DNA of 15,118 nt from a virus, in UHGV virus genome UHGV-2163177. One strand, written 5' to 3'. The stretch's first letter is position 1. Every line of letters begins with the position of its first letter. The notes beneath the pieces were generated by a model, which worked only from the letters and a program-made list of their open reading frames with translations, searched no databases and was not told the origin of the DNA. Below are positions 1,386 through 14,974 of the stretch, in pieces. Both the position numbers and the translations under genes were made by a program.

Positions 1386-1406
1386 GTTACTCAATATTCT
1401 GAATCT
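1386..1406. repeat. attL core: 21-bp direct repeat gttactcaatattctgaatct
   Basis: Identical 21-mer at 14954..14974; identity breaks on both sides. The core is followed by its own inverted copy (ttactcaatat 1387-1397 / atattgagtaa 1409-1419). Confidence 0.75.
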
Positions 1407-1528
1407 ATATATTGAGTAAATGCATCAATAGCCTATGGTTTATGGATTTTTAGTAATGATATTTTTCTTTGGGTTCACCCATGTGTACACCTAAATCATG
1501 AGTGCTATTGAGACCAATTAACACCTCA

Positions 1529-3517
1529 TTAGTTGTTAACTTGTACTTGTTCACAAGAAATATATCCCTGTCGTTTGTGTCTTCTCGCATGAGGAAATGC
1601 CAGTCTTATTTTTCCGGATCTTACTAATGGAACGAGCTGTTTTTCTCGTAGGTTCTGTGGTGTTCGGGCCATTAACTTTGCAATAACACTAAGCGGCATA
1701 TAATGGCCTGAGCAAAGCTTAAGTATGATTTCGTCCATGGTTTCGTTGGAAAGTCGTTTCTTTTCTCTGGCTAATGCAGATATGTCTTCTAACCGTTGCC
1801 TTAAGGTTGGTGAAAGGCACTCAAGGTTATCCACATAAGGAAAAGGTAGTTTCTCGGTTATAAAACGACCTAAAGCATCTCGTTCTTTTTCGTTATCCGT
1901 GATCAATTCTTCGTTATCCGTGATCAAATTATCGCTATCCGTGATGATTTGAGCTTCGTTTGCGAATGAGTTGTCTGTTGATAACGGATTTACACCAAAA
2001 ACTTCCTCTGGAGATGGAAGATCCTGCCCCGGTAATGTATATGATTTATTCCTCTTCTCACCATGAGGGACTAAGAATCCGCCGCTTACAAGGCGGGGTA
2101 AGGCTAAAGTTACCTCACGAGAGTGAAGGCTAGTTAGTTGACAAGCCCGTTCATGGTCAATCCACTTTTCTACGGCTGCAGTTATAACAATACTGCGCTC
2201 AAGCTCACTGAGATGGTCTACTTTGTCGCCAAATTTTGTATGGAGAAGATTGGCAATTTCTTCTGATACGAGGTTGCCAATAGATAGCTCCAAAAGTGTT
2301 TGTTCTGGTTCTGTTTTTTCATATAGCCTTGGCATACGCCAGTTAGCCCATTTCCAGCCACTAAATATTTTAGGGATCCCTGAGCCTGATCGTTCACCAG
2401 CACCAATAATTAAAAACATTTGATGCATCAGTCGGTTTCGACAATCGCTTTCATATCCTTTGATTGCTTGTTCTGGTGGCACGCGCATCAAACCTGGATT
2501 ACGGAAGCCAAATAGATCTGGTCGTTTCACAACCATGATGGAGATTCGTCCAGTATAATCGGCATGAACTAAGGTATTTACCAGCGCTTCACGCAATGCT
2601 GTGTGTATCTGAGTATCGTCCTGTCGGATACCTTCTTTAAGCTCAAAAGGGACTTTTAAGTCAGCAATTAGTTTTCGATAGGTTCGTCTGTAAAAGTCAA
2701 ACACGTTACCTGACCAAGTCCCATCGGGACATAGTCTATCTACCCATCTTCTTTCAGTTCTTGCTTCAGGGCGTTCTTGGTAATCCACAAAATAATTTGG
2801 GGCTACATCTTGTATCGCTTCCCATGTTCCAAACATGAGAATGCCAGCTAAGGTCATGCCTTCCAAACCTGTTTGCCGGTCTTTTCTATATCCCCCAATA
2901 CTTCGTAGGAAAGCAAAGTTATCTAGTTCGAGAGCTGGATGTGTCGGGTTTGAAGCAGATAGTAGATTTCTGTAAGCCAACAAGCTTTCTAGGTTAATAT
3001 CGTTCATGTCGAAGTTTTGTACGATACGGTTGTCGCGGCTTTCTTCAACCTGTTCGGCCATCATGCGACGAACTTGTTCTTCTGAACAACGATGATCACC
3101 GTCGTGCATACGAAACCATGTTTCTGACATGGGTTGATTATTCAAATAAACAGGTTTCTGTTCTCGTCGTGCGATTGGTATTTCAATGACAAGAATATCC
3201 TTTCCCTGTAAGGATACTGTTTGGACAGAGTTATTGGTAAGAAGATTAACGTTAACTTTTTTCTTGTTGCTCACGAGGTCGAAAAGCTGCTTTTTAACGG
3301 TATTTATATCTGAAATACCCGCAACGGAAAATTCCCCTTTTTTCTCTCTAATACCTAAAACCACATACCCACCACGGCAGTTTGCCATAGCACTATAGGT
3401 TGGCCAGAAATCATCAGGTAATTTACCTTGTCCGTCTTTCCCTTGAGCTAGCTTGAACTCTAGCTCTGCGGATTCCGAAAGTGCACGCAAGTCGCTAAGG
3501 TCAGATATTAGGAACAC
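1529..3517 (-). CDS. AlbA_2 (Schlafen-like) N-terminal domain plus HATPase_c_4-like ATPase domain protein, 662 aa; often mis-annotated as RecG-like helicase or transcriptional regulator
   Basis: Long ORF with GTG start 4 nt after a GGAGGA SD. N-terminal ESAELEFK motif is typical of AlbA_2; central ALREALVNTLVHADY motif is typical of HATPase_c_4. Domains read by eye. Confidence 0.75.
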   Translation of the reverse strand: MFLISDLSDLRALSESAELEFKLAQGKDGQGKLPDDFWPTYSAMANCRGGYVVLGIREKKGEFSVAGISDINTVKKQLFDLVSNKKKVNVNLLTNNSVQTVSLQGKDILVIEIPIARREQKPVYLNNQPMSETWFRMHDGDHRCSEEQVRRMMAEQVEESRDNRIVQNFDMNDINLESLLAYRNLLSASNPTHPALELDNFAFLRSIGGYRKDRQTGLEGMTLAGILMFGTWEAIQDVAPNYFVDYQERPEARTERRWVDRLCPDGTWSGNVFDFYRRTYRKLIADLKVPFELKEGIRQDDTQIHTALREALVNTLVHADYTGRISIMVVKRPDLFGFRNPGLMRVPPEQAIKGYESDCRNRLMHQMFLIIGAGERSGSGIPKIFSGWKWANWRMPRLYEKTEPEQTLLELSIGNLVSEEIANLLHTKFGDKVDHLSELERSIVITAAVEKWIDHERACQLTSLHSREVTLALPRLVSGGFLVPHGEKRNKSYTLPGQDLPSPEEVFGVNPLSTDNSFANEAQIITDSDNLITDNEELITDNEKERDALGRFITEKLPFPYVDNLECLSPTLRQRLEDISALAREKKRLSNETMDEIILKLCSGHYMPLSVIAKLMARTPQNLREKQLVPLVRSGKIRLAFPHARRHKRQGYISCEQVQVNN
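1890..1952. repeat. Three tandem copies of a 21-bp unit (tcgttatccgtgatcaa...) inside the 1529..3517 CDS, in frame
   Basis: Units at 1890-1910, 1911-1931, 1932-1952; the first 16 nt are identical in units 1 and 2. Encodes heptad-like ITDSDNL/ITDNEEL/ITDNEKE. Confidence 0.85.
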
Positions 3518-3801
3518 AGTTCCTCCATATGAAACTTATGGGTATAAATTTTTCACATTTTACTCTAGTTTAAGTGGTAGGAAAGAACATGAAAGGTTAT
3601 TAAAACGTTGATAACACTGATACCTGTACGTTTGAACAGGGTATTGAATAGTCAGTATGTTGCTCTGCTATGAAATGCTTTATTCGTTATGATCCTTATT
3701 TATCCACAATGATTTTCTAGTTGTCCGTGATGAAGGTTAGATAGGAATCACAGATAATTGGTAGGAGGGGCTATTATATCGGCATCATGCCCACCAGCTA
3801 C

Positions 3802-3824
3802 AAAAAAGCCTTGCCCGTAGGCTT
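3802..3824 (-). terminator. Rho-independent terminator downstream of the small ORF 3864..4043
   Basis: Stem aagcct/aggctt with 7-nt loop (3806-3824), followed on the minus strand by a U-run (plus-strand A-run 3802-3807). Confidence 0.5.
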
Positions 3825-3863
3825 AATGTTTGGCTTGAATATCGGCTTACTGTAACGCCTCGC

Positions 3864-4043
3864 TCACCGTCGCGGCCTGTCCGGTTTCTTCCACTGATAC
3901 GGCCTCACATCATCCTGCTGGTGGCGTTCCTGTTGCAGCACAACGGAAACAGGCGCTGAACACCTGTTAATTTTTCTTGCAGGTTGTTTGATTCCGGCAA
4001 TGCTGCGGATCATCTCCAGCAAATCGGCTTCGGTGATGGTCAT
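3864..4043 (-). CDS. Hypothetical small protein, 59 aa (MTITEADLLEMIRSIAGIKQ...), below the ORF-track length cutoff
   Basis: ATG at 4043 preceded by AAGGTG SD with 6-nt spacing; terminator hairpin about 40 nt past the stop; translated by hand. Confidence 0.45.
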   Translation of the reverse strand: MTITEADLLEMIRSIAGIKQPARKINRCSAPVSVVLQQERHQQDDVRPYQWKKPDRPRR

Positions 4044-4075
4044 GATTTACACCTTAGGAAATCTTAGGTGGCTGG

Positions 4076-4341
4076 TTGACACTTTCCAGCTTAAGACCTT
4101 AACAAACCTTAACATCGCAGGTTGACACACTTGACACTTTTTCGCGAAAAACCTTAACAAAACTTAACCACCCCTGGCATTTCTAAGCATGGCAACTTGA
4201 CACTTTTCGCGATTTTTTCGGTTTTTTGACGTGGTGAATATGGTACAAGGCCAGTAATGGCGCGGCTTCTAGCGAGGTTGACACTTTTTCGCGTTCAGAG
4301 TGTAAAGTGTCAACCTGGCAAGCTGCTCAACTTGACACTTT
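4076..4341. repeat. Iteron array: five direct copies plus one truncated and one inverted copy of TTGACAC(TTT), several extended to TTGACACTTTTTCGCG, interleaved with ACCTTAACA-type repeats
   Basis: Full copies start at 4076, 4131, 4197, 4278, 4332; truncated ttgacac at 4122; inverted copy at 4305-4315; ccttaaca repeats at 4095-4118 and 4149-4170. Lies between the small ORF and the HTH gene. Confidence 0.8.
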
Positions 4342-4347
4342 TTGATG

Positions 4348-4875
4348 TCATTGATGGTCTGATTTTTCCCATTCAGCCAGGGCGTTTAGCCCGGCTTCAC
4401 TCCATGATTCCAGTTCATCGGGATAATCACCTGCAACATAGCAGAGTTCGCAACGCAGCATACGAATTGCCAGCCTGGCATTACCTCGCAAATTGTATTT
4501 TTCAAAGTAATGCTGCCCTTCATCATCCTCAAGGCAGATAGCACCATCATCAAGAAAGTGCACTTCCCAGCCTAATTCCCCGGCTGCATACAGCACACGC
4601 TGCTGTATGTCATCGTCCGTTACTGGCGAAGGAATTTTACCGTCTCTGGCCTTAACTGCTTTCCAGAACTCGCCCCACGTCATTTCCAGCGTTCTTTCTG
4701 GCCACATTTCAGAAACGGTGTCTTTCCCTTGTGCCGGTGGGCTGTTCCGCTGCTCTGTCGCCTCCACATCAATTTTTTTGCCAGACATGATCACTTCGCC
4801 TTTCTCGATCCAGTCGTAAACTGTCTGGCGGCTTACGCCTTTGTATTTGGCGTATTCGGCTTTACTCATCAACAT
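4348..4875 (-). CDS. Putative HTH DNA-binding protein, 175 aa (N-terminal KYKGVSRQTVYDWIEKGEV helix-turn-helix)
   Basis: ORF 4348..4884; start placed at the ATG with GAGGTGA SD 5 nt upstream (the track start is a GTG three codons earlier). Confidence 0.65.
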   Translation of the reverse strand: MLMSKAEYAKYKGVSRQTVYDWIEKGEVIMSGKKIDVEATEQRNSPPAQGKDTVSEMWPERTLEMTWGEFWKAVKARDGKIPSPVTDDDIQQRVLYAAGELGWEVHFLDDGAICLEDDEGQHYFEKYNLRGNARLAIRMLRCELCYVAGDYPDELESWSEAGLNALAEWEKSDHQ

Positions 4876-4974
4876 GTAGCTCACCTCATGCGTATACGAT
4901 AAAAAATAATTTCATGCGGAAAGGGAATGCGTTGTGGGTATGGAGGAAAGGGGCAATAACCGCCCCTTACTGAT

Positions 4975-5247
4975 TCAGTTGCGCCAGGATGGCTGGCTAA
5001 GCGTGGTTTTCATTACATCATTGACGACCTGTTTTACGATTTCTGTGTTGGCAGTCGTGCTTTCAACATCAACAAAGCCATAATCGCCAATTTCCACCGT
5101 CAGGGATTCCAGTTTCTTCCCTAGAGCATCAGGCAACTCTCCACTGAACCGGTGCTGAAGATTTTCCACCAGCAACGCCCTGAATGCCTCGCTGTTCTCT
5201 TTTTTCTGCCATAGCTGGCGTTTATCCACTCTGATATTTAATTTCAC
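4975..5247 (-). CDS. Hypothetical protein, 90 aa
   Basis: GTG start overlapping the stop of the upstream gene (GTGA), preceded by AGAGGTGA SD. Confidence 0.5.
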   Translation of the reverse strand: MKLNIRVDKRQLWQKKENSEAFRALLVENLQHRFSGELPDALGKKLESLTVEIGDYGFVDVESTTANTEIVKQVVNDVMKTTLSQPSWRN

Positions 5248-5411
5248 AGTCTCACCTCTTTAAGTGCCTTATCCATCAGTTGCCGGGCGATAACATGAAT
5301 CGACGGTGCCACACCAAGCACAGATTTCTGACGCTCTTCGTCCTGGATGCGTTGCAGGGCTTCGATCTGCCTCCGGGAAAGTAAAACTGGCTTTACTCCG
5401 TGACCTTTCAT
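5244..5411 (-). CDS. Hypothetical small protein, 55 aa (MKGHGVKPVLLSRRQIEALQR...), possible small regulator
   Basis: Internal ATG of ORF 5244..5480 with GGGAG SD 7 nt upstream; the longer N-terminal extension has no SD. Confidence 0.45.
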   Translation of the reverse strand: MKGHGVKPVLLSRRQIEALQRIQDEERQKSVLGVAPSIHVIARQLMDKALKEVRL

Positions 5412-5521
5412 GATTTTTCTCCCGAATAATAACAACCACAACAATTGCACAAAATGAAATGATAGCAATAAATGTTGCAATTAATGAAACACAATAAGGC
5501 CGGGAAAAATCCCGGCCTCCG

Positions 5522-5809
5522 TCACTGACTGCAATTTTTCGATCCAGGGTATTTCCTGAATGCCTTACCATTGGGCTGATGTAATCCCATTCCGGCATGT
5601 GCCCGGCTGATGGTTTCGCGCATCTCCCCGAAATTATCCTGCCTTGCTGGTGGGCGTGCTGCCTTGTGGATACATTCCGCGCGACGTTTTGCCGCCTGTT
5701 CCCGTGCCTTGTCATCATTCGCCAGCATAATGACCTCAGCCCACCGCGCCGCCGCTCTCCGGTACAGACCACGCGCTTCCAGTGCTTCCGCTTTGCTGTC
5801 GTGAATCAT
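5522..5809 (-). CDS. PerC-family transcriptional regulator-like protein, 95 aa
   Basis: N-terminal AEALEARGLYRRAAARWAEV resembles the PerC/Pch family signature (from memory); start overlaps the stop of the upstream ProQ/FinO-like gene (ATGA). Confidence 0.55.
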   Translation of the reverse strand: MIHDSKAEALEARGLYRRAAARWAEVIMLANDDKAREQAAKRRAECIHKAARPPARQDNFGEMRETISRAHAGMGLHQPNGKAFRKYPGSKNCSQ

Positions 5810-6336
5810 GCGCTTGTTTTCTCCTTTGCTGCCCGGCGCTGACGTTTGCGCTTCTCATTCAGCGCCACCAGCCGCGTTTCTGCGTCCTGTTGTTCCTGTG
5901 GTGTCACCTCGCCGCACGGCTGGCCTTTCAGGTCGTAACGCGCCCCACCAGCAACCAGGGCGCGGTAATAGCGCGGAGACTGCGCATAAGATGCCAGCGT
6001 CGCACGTAATGCCCCTGGCCCAAATGCCAGCCCCCTGACGGCGAGATCCTGCATCAGGTCGTCGAATATCCCCACCTTAAGCGGCTTCGGTGCTTCCCGG
6101 CTGAATAAGTCAGGCCACAACTCAGTGAGGCGGTTAACGCGCCTGCGGTTTTTGCGCTGGCGTTTGGTCATATGCCGCCACGGTGTCGCCCCTGTGGGCT
6201 TCTGCTGCGCGTTCTGATTACCGGGCATCACTTTATATGCCGATGTGGTTTTATCCTGCTGTTGCGTCTCCTGTACCATTTTTGTGGCATACCGTAATTT
6301 CTGTTGATGGTCAGCTTTTCCATGTGTACTTTTCAT
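5806..6336 (-). CDS. ProQ/FinO-family RNA-binding protein, up to 176 aa (start uncertain)
   Basis: LTELWPDLF...KPLKVGIFDDL...LRATLASYAQSPRYYRAL...RYDLKGQPCGE matches the conserved ProQ/FinO N-terminal domain pattern. None of the candidate ATGs has a strong SD. Confidence 0.75.
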   Translation of the reverse strand: MKSTHGKADHQQKLRYATKMVQETQQQDKTTSAYKVMPGNQNAQQKPTGATPWRHMTKRQRKNRRRVNRLTELWPDLFSREAPKPLKVGIFDDLMQDLAVRGLAFGPGALRATLASYAQSPRYYRALVAGGARYDLKGQPCGEVTPQEQQDAETRLVALNEKRKRQRRAAKEKTSA

Positions 6337-6415
6337 CGATATTATCCGTATTATCGTCGTTCCTTTTGATGGCTTATTTCTATAGAAATTTCTTTATTGC
6401 TTATTGCCCAGATAA

Positions 6416-6742
6416 TTAACTGACTATTAGTGCTTTAATACTCAGGTACGCAGAAAGAATAACACCAATAAAAGAAGGGTACAGCAGAATCCCAAACAAA
6501 AACTTCATGTACTTATGTTTTCCTGTCACTTCGTTAATAACAGATATTATACTCAACATACATAATGCAATACTTATAGTTGCAATAAATGCAATAGTAA
6601 GCAAGATGAAATATCTTACACCTGTTTGAGAAGATAAATTTGCAATTATACCTATCATAACGAGACTCTGTATAATCCCGAAAGACAAAGCACCAGAAGA
6701 CTTTTCCACTATTTCACTAAATTTCTTCACAAAGTAAATCAT
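6416..6742 (-). CDS. Small hydrophobic membrane protein, 108 aa, about 3 predicted TM segments, AT-rich
   Basis: ATG at 6742 with AAGGTGA SD 6 nt upstream; hydrophobic stretches throughout; visibly lower GC than flanking genes. Confidence 0.6.
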   Translation of the reverse strand: MIYFVKKFSEIVEKSSGALSFGIIQSLVMIGIIANLSSQTGVRYFILLTIAFIATISIALCMLSIISVINEVTGKHKYMKFLFGILLYPSFIGVILSAYLSIKALIVS

Positions 6743-6819
6743 ATATATCACCTTTATATAACGCTATGCTAAGGTTTATTTATACGATATCCCCAAATGG
6801 TATTCCATCACCGTACGGA

Positions 6820-7038
6820 TCACTCTGCTGGCCTTTTTTGCCGCCCGGCCGCACCGTTCGCGCACTGATTACGCTGTCTGCGATAACCAGACCAGCCACG
6901 TTTCGCCGTTCCGTCATCTGCCAGGCTGCGCGGAAGGGGAACTGCCATACTCGCCATTGCCATTGGTGTTCCCTTGCTGGTGGTTTTTGAGTGCAGATCA
7001 GCCACCTGCCGCCCGTAAGCGGATATTTGTACCGTCAT
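6820..7038 (-). CDS. Hypothetical protein, 72 aa
   Basis: ATG with GGAGAG SD 9 nt upstream; same orientation as neighbours. Confidence 0.35.
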   Translation of the reverse strand: MTVQISAYGRQVADLHSKTTSKGTPMAMASMAVPLPRSLADDGTAKRGWSGYRRQRNQCANGAAGRQKRPAE

Positions 7039-7235
7039 GCTGTTTGCTCTCCGGTTTTAACGTTGATGATTGTCACCTGTTCAGCTTCGGCAATCTCCCG
7101 TTCTGTCAGCGTGGCAAAGTTTGCCGCTGCCGTTGTCATGAATGCGCTTATCAGTTCGGGATGTACTTTCGCGTATCCTTCCCCGGCGTTGCGGTCGATA
7201 ATTTTTATCGCCCCCCTCAGCCTGTGTTCTGTCAA
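7035..7235 (-). CDS. Hypothetical protein, 66 aa, start uncertain (TTG, no SD)
   Basis: ORF only; weak translation signals. Kept because the alternative plus-strand ORFs look less protein-like. Confidence 0.25.
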   Translation of the reverse strand: MTEHRLRGAIKIIDRNAGEGYAKVHPELISAFMTTAAANFATLTEREIAEAEQVTIINVKTGEQTA

Positions 7236-7324
7236 ATCAAGGGCGTGAGATTGTGTTTTTTGTGTGTTTCGTTGTCACAGCCTTTACCTCACAGCAATAA
7301 AATAAAATTTTTGCATTTTAACCC

Positions 7325-7552
7325 TTCACCTGTTCACCTTTTTCCGTTTCTCCTTTTAATTCATTGTGTTAAGGGGTGAACAGTTTCACAAAAACTATTC
7401 ACCAACTGTTCACCACTGTTCACCCTTAAAGCTCAACAAATAATCAAAAAGGTGAACAGTGAATAGTTTGATGAACAGTTCATGAATAACTGTTCACCCT
7501 ATAACCAACTGATATAGAACACATTTATTACAGGGTGAACAGTGATGAACAG
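7325..7552. repeat. P4-type 'type I' iteron array: about ten copies of TGTTCACC or close variants in both orientations; putative replication origin (ori/crr-like)
   Basis: Perfect octamers at 7331, 7407, 7417, 7491 (direct) and 7375, 7451, 7535 (inverse), plus variants tattcacc, gtgaatag, atgaacag. Immediately downstream of the helicase gene. Confidence 0.8.
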
Positions 7553-7565
7553 TTATTCCATAAGT

Positions 7566-9380
7566 TTAATTTTTGCCATCGTCATTTGTGACCGATGCAC
7601 ATGAGGGCATCCAGTCTTCTGAATCCTCTGTCAGTATCACGTTTGAACGCAAGCCATGCTTCGTTTTCCGTTTCATATACTCCCTGCCGTATTCCGCCAT
7701 TGCCCCTGGCATATCCTTACCGAAGCGTGTCAGTGTTACGGGCTTACCGAATCCGTGTGCCCTCATATACGCCAGATAGGCGTGATAGAGATACCTGCGC
7801 GGGCTGAACGGAATAATTTCAGCATTACCCACTAACAGGCCATCGCACATTACCGACGACATGAGATAGCCGCAGAAGTCCACCAGCGAATCGCCCTCGC
7901 GTTTTATCACCAAGGCTTCTTCTGATTTCTGCTGCTCATATAGCAGGCGTTTAGCTTCGTCCTGGTCAGAAAAGCGTGTAAGCAGGTGGCGAATCACTAC
8001 CGCCAGCTCTCCTTCTATTTTTTCAGCCAGCATAGGGTCACGTTCGTTCTCCGGTACAACTTCCGAAAAATTGAATATTACCCGACGACGTGATATCCCA
8101 CCGCTGCGGTCACTGAATGACATGGCGTTATTGTTCACCGCCAGCACGACCGCCTGAATGCGTGTTGAGTAGGGGGCTTTATGTTTCGGGTCGATTGCCA
8201 CCTTATCACCGCCTGTAATGGCCTTAATCCCTGCACCATCACCAGCGTAACGGGTCATATCCGGCATGATAATCAGCGAAAAGCCAACCACTAACGCACG
8301 TTCCCTGGCATCTTCCAGCGCCTTCATGCTTGCCGATACCGTGTTGGCCTTACCCGCCAGCATAGTGCAAATCTCCGCCATTACGCTTTTACCGCTTCCA
8401 CCCGGCCCCGTTACCTCAAGAAATAACTGCCAGTCGTACCGATTCGCCAGCACCATGAATAACGCCGCCAGTACGCGATCTGCCTTGCGGTCATTCTCAG
8501 CCACCGAACGGCGCAACCACTTCCAGAAATTCGGCGCATGTGTTGCCAGCGTTTCCCCCTCTGCTGGTGGGCTGAAAGGTAATTCACTGGCAATTAACAA
8601 CCAGTCGTTTTTGTTATGCTCCCGAAAATTACCAGTTCTGGTATCAAATACCCCGTTACTGAATCCAATCAGGTTACGGGCTGTATTCCCCATTACGGGC
8701 AAACTTAACTTCATGGTATCGACCGCCGATTTGATGGCGTTCTGCGAATAGCTGATTTCCGCATCAATAAAAATCTGCGCCATAGCCCGCTGTAACTCTT
8801 TATCCTGTACCGGCTCCCATACAACACCGTTGTAGTGGTGAACGGTGTCAGAATCCGCATTGATTGCCAGTTCACCGCCATAATGTGCCAGGAGAACTTC
8901 GCCGCGCTGGCTTGCTCCCATCTGGTTAAGTGCCAGTGGTGTCGCGCTGTCTTCTGTTTTTTTCTTTGCCGGAAACCGGATAATCAGTCCGTCATCAATG
9001 TTTTTACGCTCACGGGCAAGGTATTCACGCCAGTTCTCACACTTCTGGCTGTGCATGCCATCAGGGTAATAATTCGCATTCTGTATACTTGCCGCCGCCA
9101 GCTTCTGACCAATTGCCTTAACCATTACAGGATCTAACTGTCCGGCTCTGAATATGCGCGCGGATGTGCGCCCATCAGGCACTATTTGCAGATTTCCGAT
9201 CTCTTTCAGTTGTTCATCAGCCAGCACAACAGGTGGCTCATTATCTCCAGCCATACGCGCATCGTGTTCCTGCCATTGTTTCGCGTGTGCCCAGGCATCA
9301 CTACCCGCGAAAATAATTACCTCTGTGTCTTTGTGTTTTATTCCGCGTGGCTGTTTTTTTACGTTCGGTGCCAGTTTCAT
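7566..9380 (-). CDS. P4-family primase/helicase-like protein, 604 aa (P4 alpha-like helicase and origin-binding region; the N-terminal primase domain appears to be missing)
   Basis: Walker A TGPGGSGKS; IKAITGGDKVAIDPKHKAPY...RRRVIFNFS matches the P4-family primase C-terminal (SF3 helicase) pattern; GGGGGG SD; start overlaps upstream stop. Confidence 0.85.
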   Translation of the reverse strand: MKLAPNVKKQPRGIKHKDTEVIIFAGSDAWAHAKQWQEHDARMAGDNEPPVVLADEQLKEIGNLQIVPDGRTSARIFRAGQLDPVMVKAIGQKLAAASIQNANYYPDGMHSQKCENWREYLARERKNIDDGLIIRFPAKKKTEDSATPLALNQMGASQRGEVLLAHYGGELAINADSDTVHHYNGVVWEPVQDKELQRAMAQIFIDAEISYSQNAIKSAVDTMKLSLPVMGNTARNLIGFSNGVFDTRTGNFREHNKNDWLLIASELPFSPPAEGETLATHAPNFWKWLRRSVAENDRKADRVLAALFMVLANRYDWQLFLEVTGPGGSGKSVMAEICTMLAGKANTVSASMKALEDARERALVVGFSLIIMPDMTRYAGDGAGIKAITGGDKVAIDPKHKAPYSTRIQAVVLAVNNNAMSFSDRSGGISRRRVIFNFSEVVPENERDPMLAEKIEGELAVVIRHLLTRFSDQDEAKRLLYEQQKSEEALVIKREGDSLVDFCGYLMSSVMCDGLLVGNAEIIPFSPRRYLYHAYLAYMRAHGFGKPVTLTRFGKDMPGAMAEYGREYMKRKTKHGLRSNVILTEDSEDWMPSCASVTNDDGKN

Positions 9381-9619
9381 TTTTTCCCCCCTGCAACCAG
9401 CATTTCACGGATTTTGCGGATATAGCTTGCTGCACGTTTTTGATTTACGGCTTTATAATGGTCCACCAGCGTAAAATCACGGCGGTAGGTGATATTGCCT
9501 GGCGTAACGTGACGAATAACCACTCGTCCCCCACGTCTGGTGTCGCGGTAAATATCTCCGAGTCTGATTTCAGGCCGAGAGAGACCGCTGGCAGTAAAGC
9601 CAGAATTTTTCTTTTTCAT
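9377..9619 (-). CDS. Hypothetical protein, 80 aa
   Basis: ORF in the operon; its stop overlaps the helicase start codon. Confidence 0.45.
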   Translation of the reverse strand: MKKKNSGFTASGLSRPEIRLGDIYRDTRRGGRVVIRHVTPGNITYRRDFTLVDHYKAVNQKRAASYIRKIREMLVAGGKK

Positions 9620-9623
9620 GGTT

Positions 9624-9824
9624 TTATTTTCCTGTCAGCAGTTCCGGTTTTATTTCCGCACGAATACAGAGTTCAGAAAAAAATTCAGGAGAACCAACAA
9701 TCTCATTACTTTTCAGTCGGCATTGTGATTTCACTTTCCCTTTATCCAGGTAAACCAGTACGCGTCCGGTGAAATCATCTGGCACATTAAGCACTACGGG
9801 TACATGCGCTTCATGATTATGCAT
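9624..9824 (-). CDS. Hypothetical protein, 66 aa
   Basis: ATG with GGAGG SD; overlaps the end of the upstream gene by 8 nt. Confidence 0.5.
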   Translation of the reverse strand: MHNHEAHVPVVLNVPDDFTGRVLVYLDKGKVKSQCRLKSNEIVGSPEFFSELCIRAEIKPELLTGK

Positions 9825-10050
9825 GGCTTACATCCTCCGTGAATTTTCTTCTGTAACGCGCCTCTGCCACATATTCCGCATAGTCCGACGCAATACTAAG
9901 AATCATTTCACCCTCTGACTTGTAGCCACTGGTATTGATAAGAAAATATGCAGCTTTCATCATGTCAGCAACGCTCAACAATGCGCCCGCTGCATCTTCC
10001 GGTGCGCCATCAAATTCCCGTTTCAGGGAATTAAAACGATCATCACGCAT
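9817..10050 (-). CDS. Hypothetical protein, 77 aa
   Basis: Internal ATG at 10050 with GGGGGG SD; the longer form in the ORF track lacks an SD. Confidence 0.5.
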   Translation of the reverse strand: MRDDRFNSLKREFDGAPEDAAGALLSVADMMKAAYFLINTSGYKSEGEMILSIASDYAEYVAEARYRRKFTEDVSHA

Positions 10051-10052
10051 GT

Positions 10053-10409
10053 TTACCCCCCCTGAATGACCTGATAACCGCAACTGGTCAGCAATTCGAT
10101 AAATTCCGGCAGTGTGCCGAAACAGCAATCATCACGCAGACGTTCGCGGGATACTTCAACGCCGTTTTCGTAGTGACTCACCATGCGTCCGGTAAAATGC
10201 AGATCATCATCGTGATGGCACGTTAACGGCTTAATCAGTCGCGCACGTTCTGCCAGTTCCAGCAATGCTTCAACGCTTCCGGCAATTGCACCATCCGGCA
10301 GGTGATAATTACTTACCACGCGTCCATTCTCCACGTTGACCAGTAGCTGCCCGGAAAATATCTCGTCAAACTGAATGCTGTTAAGGTCAGAAATTGACAG
10401 GTTATGCAT
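10053..10409 (-). CDS. Hypothetical protein, 118 aa
   Basis: ATG at 10409 with AGGAGG SD at 6-nt spacing. Confidence 0.55.
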   Translation of the reverse strand: MHNLSISDLNSIQFDEIFSGQLLVNVENGRVVSNYHLPDGAIAGSVEALLELAERARLIKPLTCHHDDDLHFTGRMVSHYENGVEVSRERLRDDCCFGTLPEFIELLTSCGYQVIQGG

Positions 10410-10626
10410 GGTGCACCTCCTGCACATCAGCCATGATAATTTTTCCGGCCTTATCCAGTGCCTGATCGGCTTTTAGCTGCACAAATGCTAAATAATGGGA
10501 GATGCATTCTGATTCTCTGGCTGCGTGTTTATGCGCCACACCAGCGATAGCAGAAATCTCAATAAGTGAATCCATCAGCGTTTTGATAGCGTCTACCGCT
10601 GCATCAGGCCATGTTGCATTACACAT
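10402..10626 (-). CDS. Hypothetical protein, 74 aa
   Basis: ATG at 10626 with AGGAGG SD at 6-nt spacing; overlaps the downstream gene start. Confidence 0.5.
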   Translation of the reverse strand: MCNATWPDAAVDAIKTLMDSLIEISAIAGVAHKHAARESECISHYLAFVQLKADQALDKAGKIIMADVQEVHHA

Positions 10627-10822
10627 GTTCCACCTCCTGGCGAATGCGGGCAGCGAATACCATCACGCAGCCATCAGGAGATTGCTGGCGTGCTTCCTGT
10701 TCGCTGGTGGCCTCGATGTGAATTACACGCGGTTGTGCTGTGCTCAGGGCGATAAAACGCCAGATATATTTATTCAGGTTGTGCGAGTCCCGCCCTTGCG
10801 GGTGTGTGGTATGATTTCTCAT
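10619..10822 (-). CDS. Hypothetical protein, 67 aa; first gene of the leftward operon
   Basis: C-terminal part of track ORF 10619..11470; ATG at 10822 with GAGG SD. The rest of the long ORF runs across the divergent promoter and the opposite-strand RHH gene. Confidence 0.45.
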   Translation of the reverse strand: MRNHTTHPQGRDSHNLNKYIWRFIALSTAQPRVIHIEATSEQEARQQSPDGCVMVFAARIRQEVEHV

Positions 10823-10903
10823 AGCTACCTCGATACTTCTGCTATCGTTGGTGGTTAGACGCCCTGCATGTGTTGCGAGCACTGCGGGGCGTTGCTCTTT
10901 CAG

Positions 10904-10949
10904 GTGTATTTCACCTTTGCTTTTTAATTTACTCACTGGTGAAATACAC
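10904..10949. promoter_or_regulatory. Putative operator: perfect 12-bp inverted repeat gtgtatttcacc / ggtgaaatacac with 22-bp spacer, in the divergent promoter region
   Basis: Arms at 10904-10915 and 10938-10949; a leftward -35-like TTGAAG overlaps the right arm; a rightward -10-like TATACT lies near 10981. Confidence 0.5.
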
Positions 10950-11015
10950 TTCAAGCCTTTTTTTATCATTTTTTTTGCGTATACTGACATACACCAATTT
11001 TTAGGAGATCCAGAA

Positions 11016-11195
11016 ATGGCAACTGGTGCAAAGAACGCAAAATCACAAATGACAACTGTCAGAATCCCACATGAAGTAATGGATGATATTGAGCAACTTA
11101 AAGAACCTGGCGAAAGTACCGCTGGTTTTTTAGTTACTGCCGCAAAAGGCGAGATCAAACGCCGCCAGCGGCGCAAGGCCAAAGAACAGGAGTAG
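11016..11195 (+). CDS. Small ribbon-helix-helix-like DNA-binding protein, 59 aa (candidate element repressor)
   Basis: ATG with AGGAG SD; TTVRIPHEVMDDIEQL resembles an RHH beta-strand/helix start; basic C-terminal tail; only supported plus-strand gene in the element. Confidence 0.5.
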   Translation: MATGAKNAKSQMTTVRIPHEVMDDIEQLKEPGESTAGFLVTAAKGEIKRRQRRKAKEQE

Positions 11196-11462
11196 TTGAT
11201 TAGCGCCGGGCGCCCAGAAAAAATCGTATCAGTCGCGCCACCAGCAAAATTTTTTGCTTTCCGGACGGCGTGGCCAACGGCATTTTGCAGCAAAATATTC
11301 TGCATTTCTGGCGTACTGTGGCGACGGTGATCAGCGCCTTCACATTGAACGAACTTGTCGCTAAAATTCACCCATATAGCAAACATCGCGGTGCTGTAGG
11401 TAATTCGTTCACAAAGGCGCTCCGGCAACGGGGCGCTTTCTCTTTTTGTAACGGTCAGAGCG

Positions 11463-12263
11463 TTACACATGGCTGTTTTCCTCCATGCGACGGGCTAACC
11501 AACGCTGCGAAAGGCGAATTAATTCCGCTTTCCGCTGGTGGTAGTCCTGGCCTAACTCAATCAGCGTGATATTGCTCTGCTCAAGGTAAGAAAGGTGCTC
11601 AAGCTGCAACGTGCTCATGTGGTCGCGTGGTTCGCCTGTAATGCCGTTCGCCTGTGCCCACTGTTTTGCAGTCATGCCACCCAGCACGATACGCGCCAGC
11701 ATATTGGCTTCCGTGGTGTAGTGGTGCTGGAACGTGTTTTTACCCAGTTCAGCCCGGTACGCCTCCAGCGCGGCACACATCGGCTTAAAGTAGCTGGCAA
11801 CGGTGATACGGGCTTTCAGTTCCCGGCGTAACGCTGCGGAACGCACTGGCGCTACCTTGTGTAGCTCCTCCTCGCATTTGATGAAGTACTGACGAACGGC
11901 ACGGCCCTGTTCGGTGCGTTCGACCATCGCCAGTTCTTTTGCCATGTTCACGGTGATGATGTACTCAAGAGCTGTTTGCTGGCGAGATTTTGCGCTCACC
12001 GGATCGGGTCGGCTCAAATATTCAACAACCTCATAATCCACGCCTTCCGTGAAGCCGTATTCTTCAATGCGCCCCTTGATCCACGAACGGAAAACGCGCC
12101 CTACACCTAACGCCTTATGCAACGCTCTGGCACTAACAATATTGGTTTCACGCCCGCCAATAACGCCGGAAATAACCGGGATAATTTCACCAAAATTTTG
12201 CAGATTCTGGTTTTCAGGCCGAACGAAGCCCTGCCCCTGTACGGGCGTTTTTGGAAATTTCAT
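11463..12263 (-). CDS. Phage antirepressor, AntA/AntB N-terminal domain family, 266 aa
   Basis: NIVSARALHKALGVGRVFRSWIKGRIEEYGFTEGVDY matches the AntA/AntB pattern; AGGAG SD 7 nt upstream of the ATG. Confidence 0.75.
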   Translation of the reverse strand: MKFPKTPVQGQGFVRPENQNLQNFGEIIPVISGVIGGRETNIVSARALHKALGVGRVFRSWIKGRIEEYGFTEGVDYEVVEYLSRPDPVSAKSRQQTALEYIITVNMAKELAMVERTEQGRAVRQYFIKCEEELHKVAPVRSAALRRELKARITVASYFKPMCAALEAYRAELGKNTFQHHYTTEANMLARIVLGGMTAKQWAQANGITGEPRDHMSTLQLEHLSYLEQSNITLIELGQDYHQRKAELIRLSQRWLARRMEENSHV

Positions 12264-12342
12264 AAAAAACTCCTGCTATCGAATCTGGTTAATTGCTGTT
12301 TGATGGTGGATAGCTGGGGCGCCTGGTCCCGTAGCTGTTTTA

Positions 12343-12561
12343 TCAGGCTGATGTGTTTCGGCGTTCTTCCAGCCAGCGATTAATCTCTACCGCATCGAAT
12401 GCAGTGCTTTTCTCACCCAGTTTGATGGGCTTAGGCATCTTCCCGCTACGTACCCAACGATCGAGCGTTGATAAGCTGGTACCCAGCAATTCAGCCAGGC
12501 GATAGCGGCGGATATAGCCAGTTGCAGGGATTGCGGTTTGAAGTATTGGTTGGTTTTTCAT
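12343..12561 (-). CDS. AlpA-family transcriptional regulator/excisionase-like protein, 72 aa (start may be 12570)
   Basis: YIRRYRLAELLGTSLSTLDRWVRSGKMPKPIKLGEKSTAFDAVEINRWL is the typical AlpA/Vis HTH pattern; the N-terminal extension in the ORF track is unlikely. Confidence 0.7.
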   Translation of the reverse strand: MKNQPILQTAIPATGYIRRYRLAELLGTSLSTLDRWVRSGKMPKPIKLGEKSTAFDAVEINRWLEERRNTSA

Positions 12562-12673
12562 ATGCCCCATTACCTTTGTTGTTGGTTTGTGATTTGTAAT
12601 AGGGGCATTAAATAACAAATGAAATGATGTGTGTGTGAGTTTTAGAAAAAACACTGTGACTTTTCTTATTTCA

Positions 12674-13456
12674 CTATCTAAAACGCTCTCGCCAGCTTTT
12701 CCAAGTGTTCTTATCTGGTTGTGGGATTACAATGCCTTTTTGAGCACCTATTTGTGCAATTTTTTTATTTAACTTGTTAGGCGGCAAAGATATTATCTCA
12801 TTGTCTGTTAACCCGGCAATTCTTAATAATCCATATATCATTTTAAATTGATGTATTGTTAATCTTGGTAACTTGTGATTTTCTTTTTTTATAGTGTTGT
12901 TTATGGAGTAAATTGGAAATCCATTTGTTATTGATTTATAAAGGTTGTCAATGTGCTCTCTGGTTATTAATAATGAATCAGGTGTAATCTTAATGTTGCC
13001 GCTTGTTTTTGCATGGCATGAAAAAATAAATGTGGGATTCGCAGTGCGACGTGAAAGCGGTATGGATGTATTCATAGAGATAGTTTTGTTTCTTACTATA
13101 GTCTCTTGAATATCAAAAACTCCAGAAACCTTTGCCTCAAAAATAACACCATTTTCTTTTATTTCATCACTATATTCATGAATAATTATGCCAAGAGAGG
13201 AAATTTCTTTTTTGATGAGAAAAGAAATAAAATCAATATAGTCTTCATCCTTTGGCCATGTAAAATCACGATAACCAAAATACCCCTCACAGTAAGCATT
13301 TTTTATTTTTGTGGCAAAATTAATTCTGTTAATATCCTGCCAATGCCATAAATCATCTATTTCACATTCTAAAATTTGAGCTGCTCTATCTAAAGAGCAG
13401 AATTCTAATGGAGGTAATTGTTTTTTTTGCCATATTGTTTCATTAATATTTGTCAT
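12674..13456 (-). CDS. Hypothetical protein, 260 aa, strongly AT-rich orphan between int and the alpA-like gene
   Basis: Long uninterrupted ORF with A/T-biased codons (Ile/Asn/Lys-rich); no family recognised by eye; weak SD. Confidence 0.6.
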   Translation of the reverse strand: MTNINETIWQKKQLPPLEFCSLDRAAQILECEIDDLWHWQDINRINFATKIKNAYCEGYFGYRDFTWPKDEDYIDFISFLIKKEISSLGIIIHEYSDEIKENGVIFEAKVSGVFDIQETIVRNKTISMNTSIPLSRRTANPTFIFSCHAKTSGNIKITPDSLLITREHIDNLYKSITNGFPIYSINNTIKKENHKLPRLTIHQFKMIYGLLRIAGLTDNEIISLPPNKLNKKIAQIGAQKGIVIPQPDKNTWKSWRERFR

Positions 13457-13512
13457 GATTGCACTACCGTTATGAAAAAATATATTCGTTAATGAATTAG
13501 CCTTAATGTCTA

Positions 13513-14766
13513 TTATTTATTAGATTGCGTGATGTCAGAACATATCATGTTTTCTAAATTCACCAGCAAATCAGTCCATTGTGCTAGTGCCGCTTTGCGC
13601 TCATCAAAATATTGATGGCGGTTATAAATGCCCTCTACGCCTTTTATGCGGTGGTTAAGGCATCGTTCAGCAACGATCGGGTCAACTCCCAATGCTGCTA
13701 AATGTGTTCGTGCTGTTCGCCGGAAGTCGTGAATTGTAAAGTTGGGGACGTTCGGCATTTCTGCTCTGACTTTTGCCAATGCAACAGGAAGGGTGCTTTC
13801 CTGGATGTGAGGGATCATTCTGTGCTGCATTTTTCTGGCAGGTAATACCCATGCGCTATTGCATGAAAATGTATGCAATTCTCGCAACCATTCTATAGCC
13901 GCTGGTGGCAATGGTATGTCGATAGCATCACCATTTTTAGTTCGTTGTTCTGGTAGATGCCAAATCGCGCCATCTAAGTCGAATTCATCCCACTTGGCGG
14001 CGCATAATTCCATTTTTCTGACACACAACGCCAGGAGCAACTTAAAGGTTAATTCGTTCTGGCGGCTGAATCCTTTGGCTTTACGCATTGCCTGAAAAAA
14101 TTGGATTAATTCGTCCCGGTTCAGCCAACGATCACGAGATAATTCTTTCCCACCAGCATCTGAAACTTCGAAAGCTGAGCAGGGGTTAACTTCCAAAGCA
14201 AGGCGTTTAATACCGTAGTCAAATATGCGACGTGTCCAGCGAAGAACGTCAGTAGCAATTGTTGGAGCGCCTCTATCAACAATACTTTTAAGCATAGCAT
14301 CAATATGGCGTGGTTTTACATCTTCAACCTTCATGTGGCCTATGGCTGGATTTATGTCTTTATCAATGCGCCTACGGAGAATATCTGGGTGTTTCCACCG
14401 GGGAAGTATTTGCCGTTCAAAGTATTCGGCGGCAAGTTCAGAAACGTGCAGCGCGTTTTTTTCGGCTTCTATTTTTGCCAGTGCTTCGGCTTTACGCTGC
14501 TGTTTTTCTGCGGCTACGTCATATCCCAAAGCAACTCGTGCGGAAAGTTCTTTTGCCCGTTCCCTCGCTTTTGATAACGATAATTCAGAATATGAACCAA
14601 TAAGCATGGCACGAGATTTTCCTGCTAGTTTATATCGAAACCGCCAGGTAGGGGATCTATCCACCTCTCTATACCGGAGATATAGCCCACCACCATCAGC
14701 ACGACCTTCGAAATGTTCTCCGGCTTTTATCCATGCGCGGATCTGCATATCTGTGAGTTTTGGCAT
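13513..14766 (-). CDS. int: Tyrosine integrase, P4-type (IntA/IntS-like), 417 aa
   Basis: N-terminal arm-binding-type domain (GGGLYLRYREV...WRFRYK); C-terminal catalytic region with HDFRRTARTHL and conserved Tyr region; located just inside attR. Confidence 0.9.
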   Translation of the reverse strand: MPKLTDMQIRAWIKAGEHFEGRADGGGLYLRYREVDRSPTWRFRYKLAGKSRAMLIGSYSELSLSKARERAKELSARVALGYDVAAEKQQRKAEALAKIEAEKNALHVSELAAEYFERQILPRWKHPDILRRRIDKDINPAIGHMKVEDVKPRHIDAMLKSIVDRGAPTIATDVLRWTRRIFDYGIKRLALEVNPCSAFEVSDAGGKELSRDRWLNRDELIQFFQAMRKAKGFSRQNELTFKLLLALCVRKMELCAAKWDEFDLDGAIWHLPEQRTKNGDAIDIPLPPAAIEWLRELHTFSCNSAWVLPARKMQHRMIPHIQESTLPVALAKVRAEMPNVPNFTIHDFRRTARTHLAALGVDPIVAERCLNHRIKGVEGIYNRHQYFDERKAALAQWTDLLVNLENMICSDITQSNK

Positions 14767-14793
14767 TTTCGTGTATCCAGACGTTGAAAACTT

Positions 14794-14848
14794 GGTGTAC
14801 CCAAACGTTTGGACTTAAAGCGTGATGTGTACACCTTTGGGTACACTG
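14794..14848. promoter_or_regulatory. Cluster of short palindromes/repeats upstream of int (ccaaacgtttgg, gtgtacac, tttgggtacac); candidate Int arm-type or regulatory sites
   Basis: 12-bp palindrome at 14801-14812, 8-bp palindrome at 14828-14835. The 12-mer atgtgtacacct (14825-14836) recurs at 1481-1492 at the other end of the element. Confidence 0.4.
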
Positions 14849-14891
14849 TTATCATGCGCTTTAGTCGTTCCTTATGAGTGTTCATGATAAC

Positions 14892-14914
14892 AAAAAAGCC
14901 CGAAAAAATCGGGC
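14892..14914 (-). terminator. Rho-independent terminator carried by the element, now sitting just downstream of yicC
   Basis: Stem gcccga/tcgggc with 5-nt loop (14898-14914), followed on the minus strand by a 6-U run (plus-strand A-run 14892-14897). Confidence 0.6.
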
Positions 14915-14953
14915 CTTTAAGTGTTTGGGATTTTTGATGAAAGTCAATAAATC

Positions 14954-14974
14954 GTTACTCAATATTCTGAATCT
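14954..14974. repeat. attR core: 21-bp direct repeat gttactcaatattctgaatct overlapping the yicC stop codon
   Basis: Identical to 1386..1406; encodes the last yicC codons (...QIQNIE-stop) on the minus strand. Confidence 0.75.

Follow-up and report, generated by a model that had tools for sequence, protein, structure and literature searches.

Short motifs recur at both ends of an island inserted at the yicC gene of Escherichia coli. What are these motifs, and which protein reads them? An earlier note on this DNA had singled out a 12-mer shared by the two ends of the element and had proposed that it marks arm-type binding sites, either of the integrase or of an AlpA-like protein. Here, the motifs are followed through the window (the whole stretch of 15,118 nt that was analysed) and through related islands of other genomes.

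The island and its junctions

The island, 13.6 kb in length, occupies positions 1386-14974 of the window, is inserted in the 3′ end of yicC and has its ends marked by a 21-bp direct repeat without mismatches. From 14955 onward, the minus strand carries the 3′ end of yicC; dinD lies on the same strand at 342-1178. In E. coli genomes without the island, the end of yicC is joined straight to the sequence left of 1406; in strain A41, the same island is annotated between dinD and yicC. Its landmarks are:

1386-1406, no strand: dinD-side copy of the core (att identity block), GTTACTCAATATTCTGAATCT, repeated without mismatch and in direct orientation over 21 bp at 14954-14974
12343-12561, minus strand: AlpA-like helix-turn-helix gene (Pfam Phage_AlpA, 1.8e-8), a 72-aa HTH regulator in the annotation of strain A41
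13513-14766, minus strand: int, a P4-family tyrosine integrase of 417 aa with an N-terminal arm-binding domain, hypervariable at residues 29-42
14894-14918, minus strand: intrinsic terminator brought by the island, behind the restored 3′ end of yicC and upstream of the arm sites
14954-14974, no strand: core copy on the yicC side, covering the last six codons and the stop of yicC (minus strand)

The integrase (Int) contains the Pfam domains Arm-DNA-bind_3 (residues 4-90, E=2.5e-19), Phage_int_M and Phage_integrase, and homologues of its N-terminal domain are found in the PDB (3ju0 and 3jtz). Among sequenced phages, no integrase is more than 32% identical to that of the island. Other island genes encode an AntA antirepressor, a D5-type primase, and ProQ/FinO, PerC-like and Schlafen/AlbA_2 proteins, in addition to several small genes; virion or lysis genes are absent from the island. 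With int, alpA and a primase gene present and a size within the 12-15 kb range, the island is, by its sequence, a PICI-like satellite. The gene content described for Gram-negative PICIs is that of the present island (PMC6092414, PMC11773190), and reference PICIs at yicC are mentioned in a preprint. Operators of SetCD or AcaCD, by which Vibrio yicC mobilizable islands are activated, were considered as an identity for the end motifs and dropped, since the genes of the island are those of a PICI and the motif goes with Int. A tRNA scan and an Rfam search gave no matches.

Further repeats and boxes were seen elsewhere in the window. A consensus LexA box (CTGTATTTATATACAG) lies at 1212-1227, upstream of dinD and outside the island. 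Just downstream of the primase gene (7566-9380, minus strand), dense direct and inverted repeats of the GGTGAACAGT type at 7354-7567 are likely to constitute a replication origin, as described for PICIs. In the intergenic segment 4069-4343, the sequence (A/G)(C/G)TTGACACTTT occurs six times or more, in direct and inverted orientation; these copies look like iterons or operators. Within the Schlafen/AlbA_2 ORF, three tandem 21-bp repeats (TTCGTTATCCGTGATCAA) at 1886-1948 give rise to a 7-residue protein repeat, and a fourth, diverged copy is present at 3714-3734.

Twelve-base-pair sites and their layout

The 12-mer ATGTGTACACCT does occur in the same orientation at both ends of the island, with exact copies at 1481-1492 and 14825-14836 on the plus strand. 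The tttgggt(t/a)cac motifs said to adjoin it are likewise found where expected, as TTTGGGTTCAC at 1468-1478 and as TTTGGGTACAC at 14836-14846 on the plus strand, the latter also in inverted form at 14795-14805. The assertion that such a recurrence is very unlikely by chance in 15 kb fails, however. In the window, 18 distinct direct repeats match exactly over 12 nt or more, compared with 8.5 ± 2.8 in random windows generated by a first-order Markov model, so a recurring 12-mer somewhere in 15 kb is to be expected. The improbable part is its position: both copies lie at most 160 nt inside the two island junctions, and a common 12-mer was seen in only 28 of 18,835 random pairs of 160-nt interior segments (0.0015).

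Nor are the 12-mer and the 11-mer the units of the repeat. Both were mis-parsed, and ATGTGTACACCT in fact straddles the junction of two adjacent 12-bp sites. The true unit is one such site, reading GTGTACCCAAAG on the int strand; its GTGTAC half is conserved and the other, here CCAAAG, variable. Since GTAC is palindromic, all sites were read in a strand-aware manner on the int strand, that is, the reverse complement of the window. Each arm carries one tandem pair with a 12-bp period, both pairs in the same orientation (1467-1490 and 14823-14846), and there is one inverted copy:

1467-1478, minus strand: far-arm site 2, GTGAACCCAAAG, 16.1 bits; includes TTTGGGTTCAC
1479-1490, minus strand: far-arm site 1, GTGTACACATGG, 11.6 bits; first of its tandem pair, starting 86 nt from the core anchor
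14795-14806, plus strand: inverted site, GTGTACCCAAAC, 19.6 bits; 16 nt from the tandem pair and 28 nt upstream of the int ATG
14823-14834, minus strand: int-proximal site 2, GTGTACACATCA, 10.3 bits; 12 bp off site 1, at a position that is also filled in relatives
14835-14846, minus strand: int-proximal site 1, GTGTACCCAAAG, 22.2 bits, the best of the window; starts 126 nt from the core anchor
14847-14953, minus strand: spacer from the core to the proximal pair, with a second short-repeat family (TTTCAT, TATCAT, ACTCAT) at intervals of about 10-11 bp

The scores derive from a weight matrix made solely from 43 sites of other elements, with which every position of the window was scored on both strands. 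The five sites rank 1st, 2nd, 3rd, 5th and 7th, and chance alone would give about 0.54 hits as good as the fifth-best hit. Two of the five are weak (10-12 bits), and one unrelated position of the window reaches 11.9 bits. Both attP arms carry sites, which lie beyond the 21-bp core and do not resemble it in sequence. Measured from the middle of the 21-bp repeat, the centres of the two pairs are at 82.5 and 129.5 bp, and they are 212 bp apart. The expectation that the motifs would flank the core once the island is excised is supported by the reconstructed attP, in which the sites of the two arms are at conserved distances.

The palindromes that had been noted upstream of int are present as well, CCAAACGTTTGG at 14801-14812 (no strand) and GTGTACAC at 14827-34, the latter with a second copy at 1483-90. 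The first of them varies among relatives, which have a second inverted site or unrelated sequence at its position. It is composed of the tail of the inverted site and neighbouring bases, and is probably incidental.

Among the 5,426 complete E. coli genomes, about 450 have an island with a related right end at yicC, most at about 74% DNA identity. A scan of one genome per species yielded 78 loci with integrases that are 29-89% identical, in genera that include Enterobacter, Erwinia, Serratia, Xenorhabdus and Dechloromonas. About 70 related loci were inspected for the int-proximal layout, and 59 were analysed for sites. Most loci with a yicC junction and an intact int start share one order: the yicC stop, about 35 nt, the terminator (at the equivalent place in related loci), about 45 nt with other short repeats, the tandem pair with its 12-bp period, a first inverted site that is optional, a further inverted site, and int. 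The start of the proximal pair is 125-127 nt from the core anchor in most related loci, compared with 126 nt here, and in nearly all relatives the inverted site keeps the same distance from the ATG. Conservation in related elements, put forward in the earlier note as a check on the motifs, is what we find, in that the same int-proximal architecture is kept across genera.

The far ends were sought in the 78 loci by means of an exact direct repeat of the yicC end, and 14 were recovered, a number limited by islands that mostly exceed the 10-kb flank and by many far cores that are degenerate. All 14 elements with a readable far end have a far tandem pair co-oriented with the proximal pair. It starts 86 nt from the core in most cases that could be placed (L001, L024, L026, L029, L038, L052 and L054) and 97 nt in L069. 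At the dinD-side junction of one of these elements (L001, E. coli K56-43-un), the far core copy and the end of yicC share just CAGATTCAGA, and the native end of yicC lacks 11 nt; this junction is an example of att 'drift', a term from a preprint.

In a comparison of about 55 related islands, the two ends of one element have the same variable half wherever both can be read, and elements differ from one another, examples being CCAAAG, ACCTAG, ATAA(A/G), TTAAA, GTGCACCA, GTGTAACCA and TTGTACCCAAGG. An element with an integrase just 43% identical has the site GGTGACAGA. Agreement between the two ends of an element combined with difference between elements is the pattern expected for sites read by a co-evolving, element-encoded protein.

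The second repeat family in the spacer flanks the terminator on both sides and occurs at the same place in L003-L075. Its unit, too, is element-specific, with TATCAY, RTCTCAY, TYGCAT or ACTCCGA in other elements. These repeats could be sites of the excision factor; any correlation with AlpA is confounded by that between AlpA and the Int catalytic domain themselves (r=0.76). Sites for IHF, which has the consensus WATCAANNNNTTR, were also considered and rejected, as the element-specific repeats do not fit it.

A closely similar arrangement is found in satellite phage P4, in whose GenBank record (NC_001609) 'attP arm sequence repeat' features are annotated. Along P4 attP, one tandem pair occupies 4151-4174 and a second, co-oriented one 3942-3965, with the core between them at 4078-4097; the inverted repeat (3915-3926) overlaps the start of int. 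The order is that of the window, namely tandem 12-bp pair, core, co-oriented pair, inverted repeat and int. The dimensions also agree: the pair centres of P4 are separated from its core centre by 75 and 134 bp (sum 209), those of the window by 82.5 and 129.5 bp (212), and the inverted repeat is separated from the proximal pair by 15 and 16 nt, respectively. The two integrases have the same domain set, yet are just 25% identical, and the P4 repeat, (A/T)TGGGGGCAT / GGGGGCAT, is unrelated in sequence to GTGTACCCAAAG of the window. P4 further differs in that its inverted repeat overlaps the int start codon, whereas that of the window lies 28 nt upstream of the int start, and in having an extra repeat annotated inside int. 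The integration target of P4 is a tRNA-Leu gene, unlike yicC here. Judged by its sites, the window integrase is one of P4-type layout but of a specificity group other than that of P4 Int.

HE-PICIs provide a further parallel. Their doubled motif, tgTGTATTGCantgTGTATTGCa, is situated 81 ± 2 and 132 ± 2 bp from the attP centre and is reported to be absent from other PICIs; whether Int or AlpA binds it was left undecided (PMC10111431). We recovered this arrangement in loci L083-L149 from viral contigs, with integrases 24-27% identical to the window Int. As in the window, the period is 12 bp, each attP has two co-oriented doubled motifs (the distances sum to 213 bp, compared with 212 bp), and one copy lies just upstream of int. 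The doubled motif starts with TGT(A), like the window sites, but the variable half differs, and the core motif TGTATTGC does not match GTGTACCCAAAG. Given the likeness to both P4 and the HE-PICIs, the window element is another member of an established layout, with a site sequence of its own.

More distant systems share some of these features. The attP of phage lambda has five arm sites (P1, P2 and P'1-P'3) distal to the core and on both arms, as in the window, and these are bound by the N-terminal domain of a heterobivalent integrase (PMC2951348). Lambda Int belongs to another arm-domain family, however; the arrangement and spacing of its sites are unlike those of the window, and lambda int transcription does not start within an att arm. 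In the KplE1 (CPS-53) prophage, with IntS and TorI, int abuts att and the arm sites overlap the region upstream of int, as here (PMC2951348). KplE1 differs in being a tRNA-inserted prophage with other site sequences, and its promoter and sites were mapped by experiment, whereas the sites of the window are predicted from sequence.

Which protein reads the sites

Int and AlpA were compared as readers of the sites by Mantel tests over 55 loci. The distance between variable halves follows the divergence of Int residues 29-42 (r=0.65, p<=0.0005). Corrected for catalytic-domain divergence, the correlation amounts to a partial r of 0.60, with the proviso that the loci are related and the partial Mantel test controls their non-independence only in part. 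The catalytic domain alone gives r=0.34, and AlpA shows no correlation with the variable half (r=0.05, p=0.15, n=30; partial r=-0.04). The same distinction emerges from 12 pairs of elements that have AlpA proteins at least 85% identical (87-97%) and different site classes. In 12 of these 12 pairs the Int segment differs too; it is 50-71% identical in 11 of them and 86% in L028/L036. For L008 and L009, AlpA is 97% and the Int catalytic domain 93% identical, with the segments YLRYREADKTPTWR versus YLSYRENYQTPVWR and sites of the CAAxG type (GTGTAC[A/C]CAA) versus the ACCTAG type.

Within Int, residues 31-40 form the most variable block of 10 residues (1.69 bits), and site class shares most mutual information with the four columns 40, 35, 31 and 36. 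An exception is L052, in which an Int segment like that of the 'ATAA class' is found with CCCA-type sites. The codons for residues 29-42 lie at about 14641-14682. A single-sequence AlphaFold model of Int (pLDDT 47) is too poor to place these residues on the DNA-binding sheet; at low confidence, they would span the end of a beta-strand, a loop and the start of the next strand in the N-terminal sheet. In lambda Int, the equivalent N-terminal sheet enters the major groove of the arm sites.

Several other explanations were weighed against these data. That the motifs are instead bound by the AlpA-like protein, acting as excision factor or transcription activator, has some appeal: the gene is within the island, proteins of the AlpA family are excision factors in P4 (Vis), and AlpA was kept open as a possible binder of the doubled motif of HE-PICIs (PMC10111431). 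This reading is nonetheless very unlikely, with site class uncorrelated with AlpA sequence, the 12 pairs of near-identical AlpA proteins associated with other site classes, and sites on both arms, unlike excision-factor sites, which are usually confined to one arm. Moreover, the activity of the int promoter of EcCICFT073 is unchanged by AlpA (PMC6092414). Operators of another regulator, of the element or of the host, that control int and have no role in recombination would suit the position of the proximal sites 28-80 bp upstream of the int start codon, and the island has several small genes of unknown function that might supply such a regulator. An operator at a promoter, however, would not require a second copy in like orientation and at constant spacing from the core at the opposite island end, a host factor would keep one specificity across elements in related hosts, and the co-variation points to Int; we regard this possibility, too, as highly improbable.

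Even less credence attaches to the idea that the direct and inverted copies upstream of int build an RNA or DNA hairpin (a leader structure), in which co-variation would reflect compensation within the stem. The 134-nt int leader does fold better than shuffled sequences (z=-2.8), and the direct and inverted copies are complementary and change together between elements. Against this, the two copies are not paired with each other in the minimum-free-energy fold, no Rfam family matches, the far arm has the same tandem pair without an inverted partner, both members of a tandem pair are conserved although only one could pair, and the motif tracks a protein segment. Finally, a window of this size is expected to hold about 8.5 exact repeats of at least 12 nt, which would allow for chance recurrence of a 12-mer; this explanation retains a negligible probability, given the empirical frequency of 0.0015 for the positional coincidence, the recovery of five out of five sites by an independent weight matrix and the conservation of the sites in dozens of genera.

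Taken together, these comparisons lead us to assign a probability of roughly 85% to the reading that the end motifs are arm-type binding sites of the island's own P4-family integrase in a P4-type attP. Of the two candidate readers that had been named at the outset, the integrase is upheld by its arm domain, the layout on both arms, the co-variation and the likeness to P4, and AlpA is disfavoured on comparative grounds (r=0.05).

On excision, the ends of the island would be joined into an attP that begins with the far tandem pair (1467-1490), followed by a spacer of about 62 bp, the core, and about 108 bp with the terminator and the other repeats. It would continue with the co-oriented tandem pair (14823-14846), 16 bp, the inverted site (14795-14806), 28 bp and the start of int. 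By analogy with lambda and P4, Int would read the 12-bp sites with its N-terminal arm-binding domain and hold the core with its C-terminal domains; by bridging arms and core, Int would fold attP into a complex that recombines with the end of yicC. Separate subsets of the five sites are probably used for integration and for excision.

The region upstream of int is itself the att arm that bears the sites, with the proximal sites 28-80 bp upstream of the ATG at 14766, a position from which bound Int probably lowers int transcription; Int on these sites would then probably also act as repressor of its own gene. There is precedent in KplE1, where IntS represses its own promoter through arm sites that overlap it, and the same is reported for P4 (PMC2951348). 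On the int strand, a promoter scan detected nothing sigma-70-like. Transcripts of int might also come from yicC, by read-through of the terminator at 14894-14918.

Two observations concern the same region. On the plus strand, the proximal pair is overlapped by a promoter-like match at 14828-14855 (TGTACA, then TATCAT after 16 nt, and an extended -10 TG); the match is directed away from int, toward the terminator and yicC, and may be due to chance. At 14767-14780 (…GGATACACGAAAATG), int has no recognisable Shine-Dalgarno sequence, and in the relatives the 25 nt that precede the int ATG show strong conservation from genus to genus, suggestive of an unusual start, for example on a leaderless or structured mRNA.

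Arm specificity among islands at yicC

The co-variation of Int and its sites raises the possibility that arm specificity diversifies rapidly, through Int residues 29-42 and the matching five to six arm sites, while the catalytic domain and the yicC target stay constant. We offer this as a tentative proposal that may well prove wrong. Integrases with catalytic domains 92-95% identical differ in the segment as well as in the sites, and in close relatives the nucleotide identity dips locally at the arm sites and at int codons 22-62. Furthermore, yicC is often occupied by two tandem islands or by an island and a decayed remnant (L024, L026, L029, L038, L051 and L067), and L011/L023 are tandem neighbours on one Erwinia contig. 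Neighbours at yicC have differing site classes in four of four readable cases (L024, L051, L067 and L011/L023). In this small sample, the pattern is in keeping with selection that favours orthogonal Int/attP pairs where satellites compete for one site.

Current understanding is not overturned by the arm-site finding: the layout itself is of a known kind, and what is possibly new is a hypervariable specificity segment in the integrase. For annotation, the exact ends and the attP anatomy of a common yicC island are now fixed, and the P4-type layout of pair, core, pair and inverted copy extends to integrases just 25% identical to P4 Int. The comparative evidence also suggests that the HE-PICI doubled motif, with a binder that was undecided before, would be read by the integrase rather than by AlpA. 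The variable half of the site is so tightly linked to 14 residues of Int that a rule for selecting or re-programming arm specificity suggests itself, which could help if PICIs are engineered as delivery vehicles. If the proposed diversification is true, satellites competing for one chromosomal site would possess mutually orthogonal Int/attP pairs, and tandem neighbours could coexist without excising or capturing one another.
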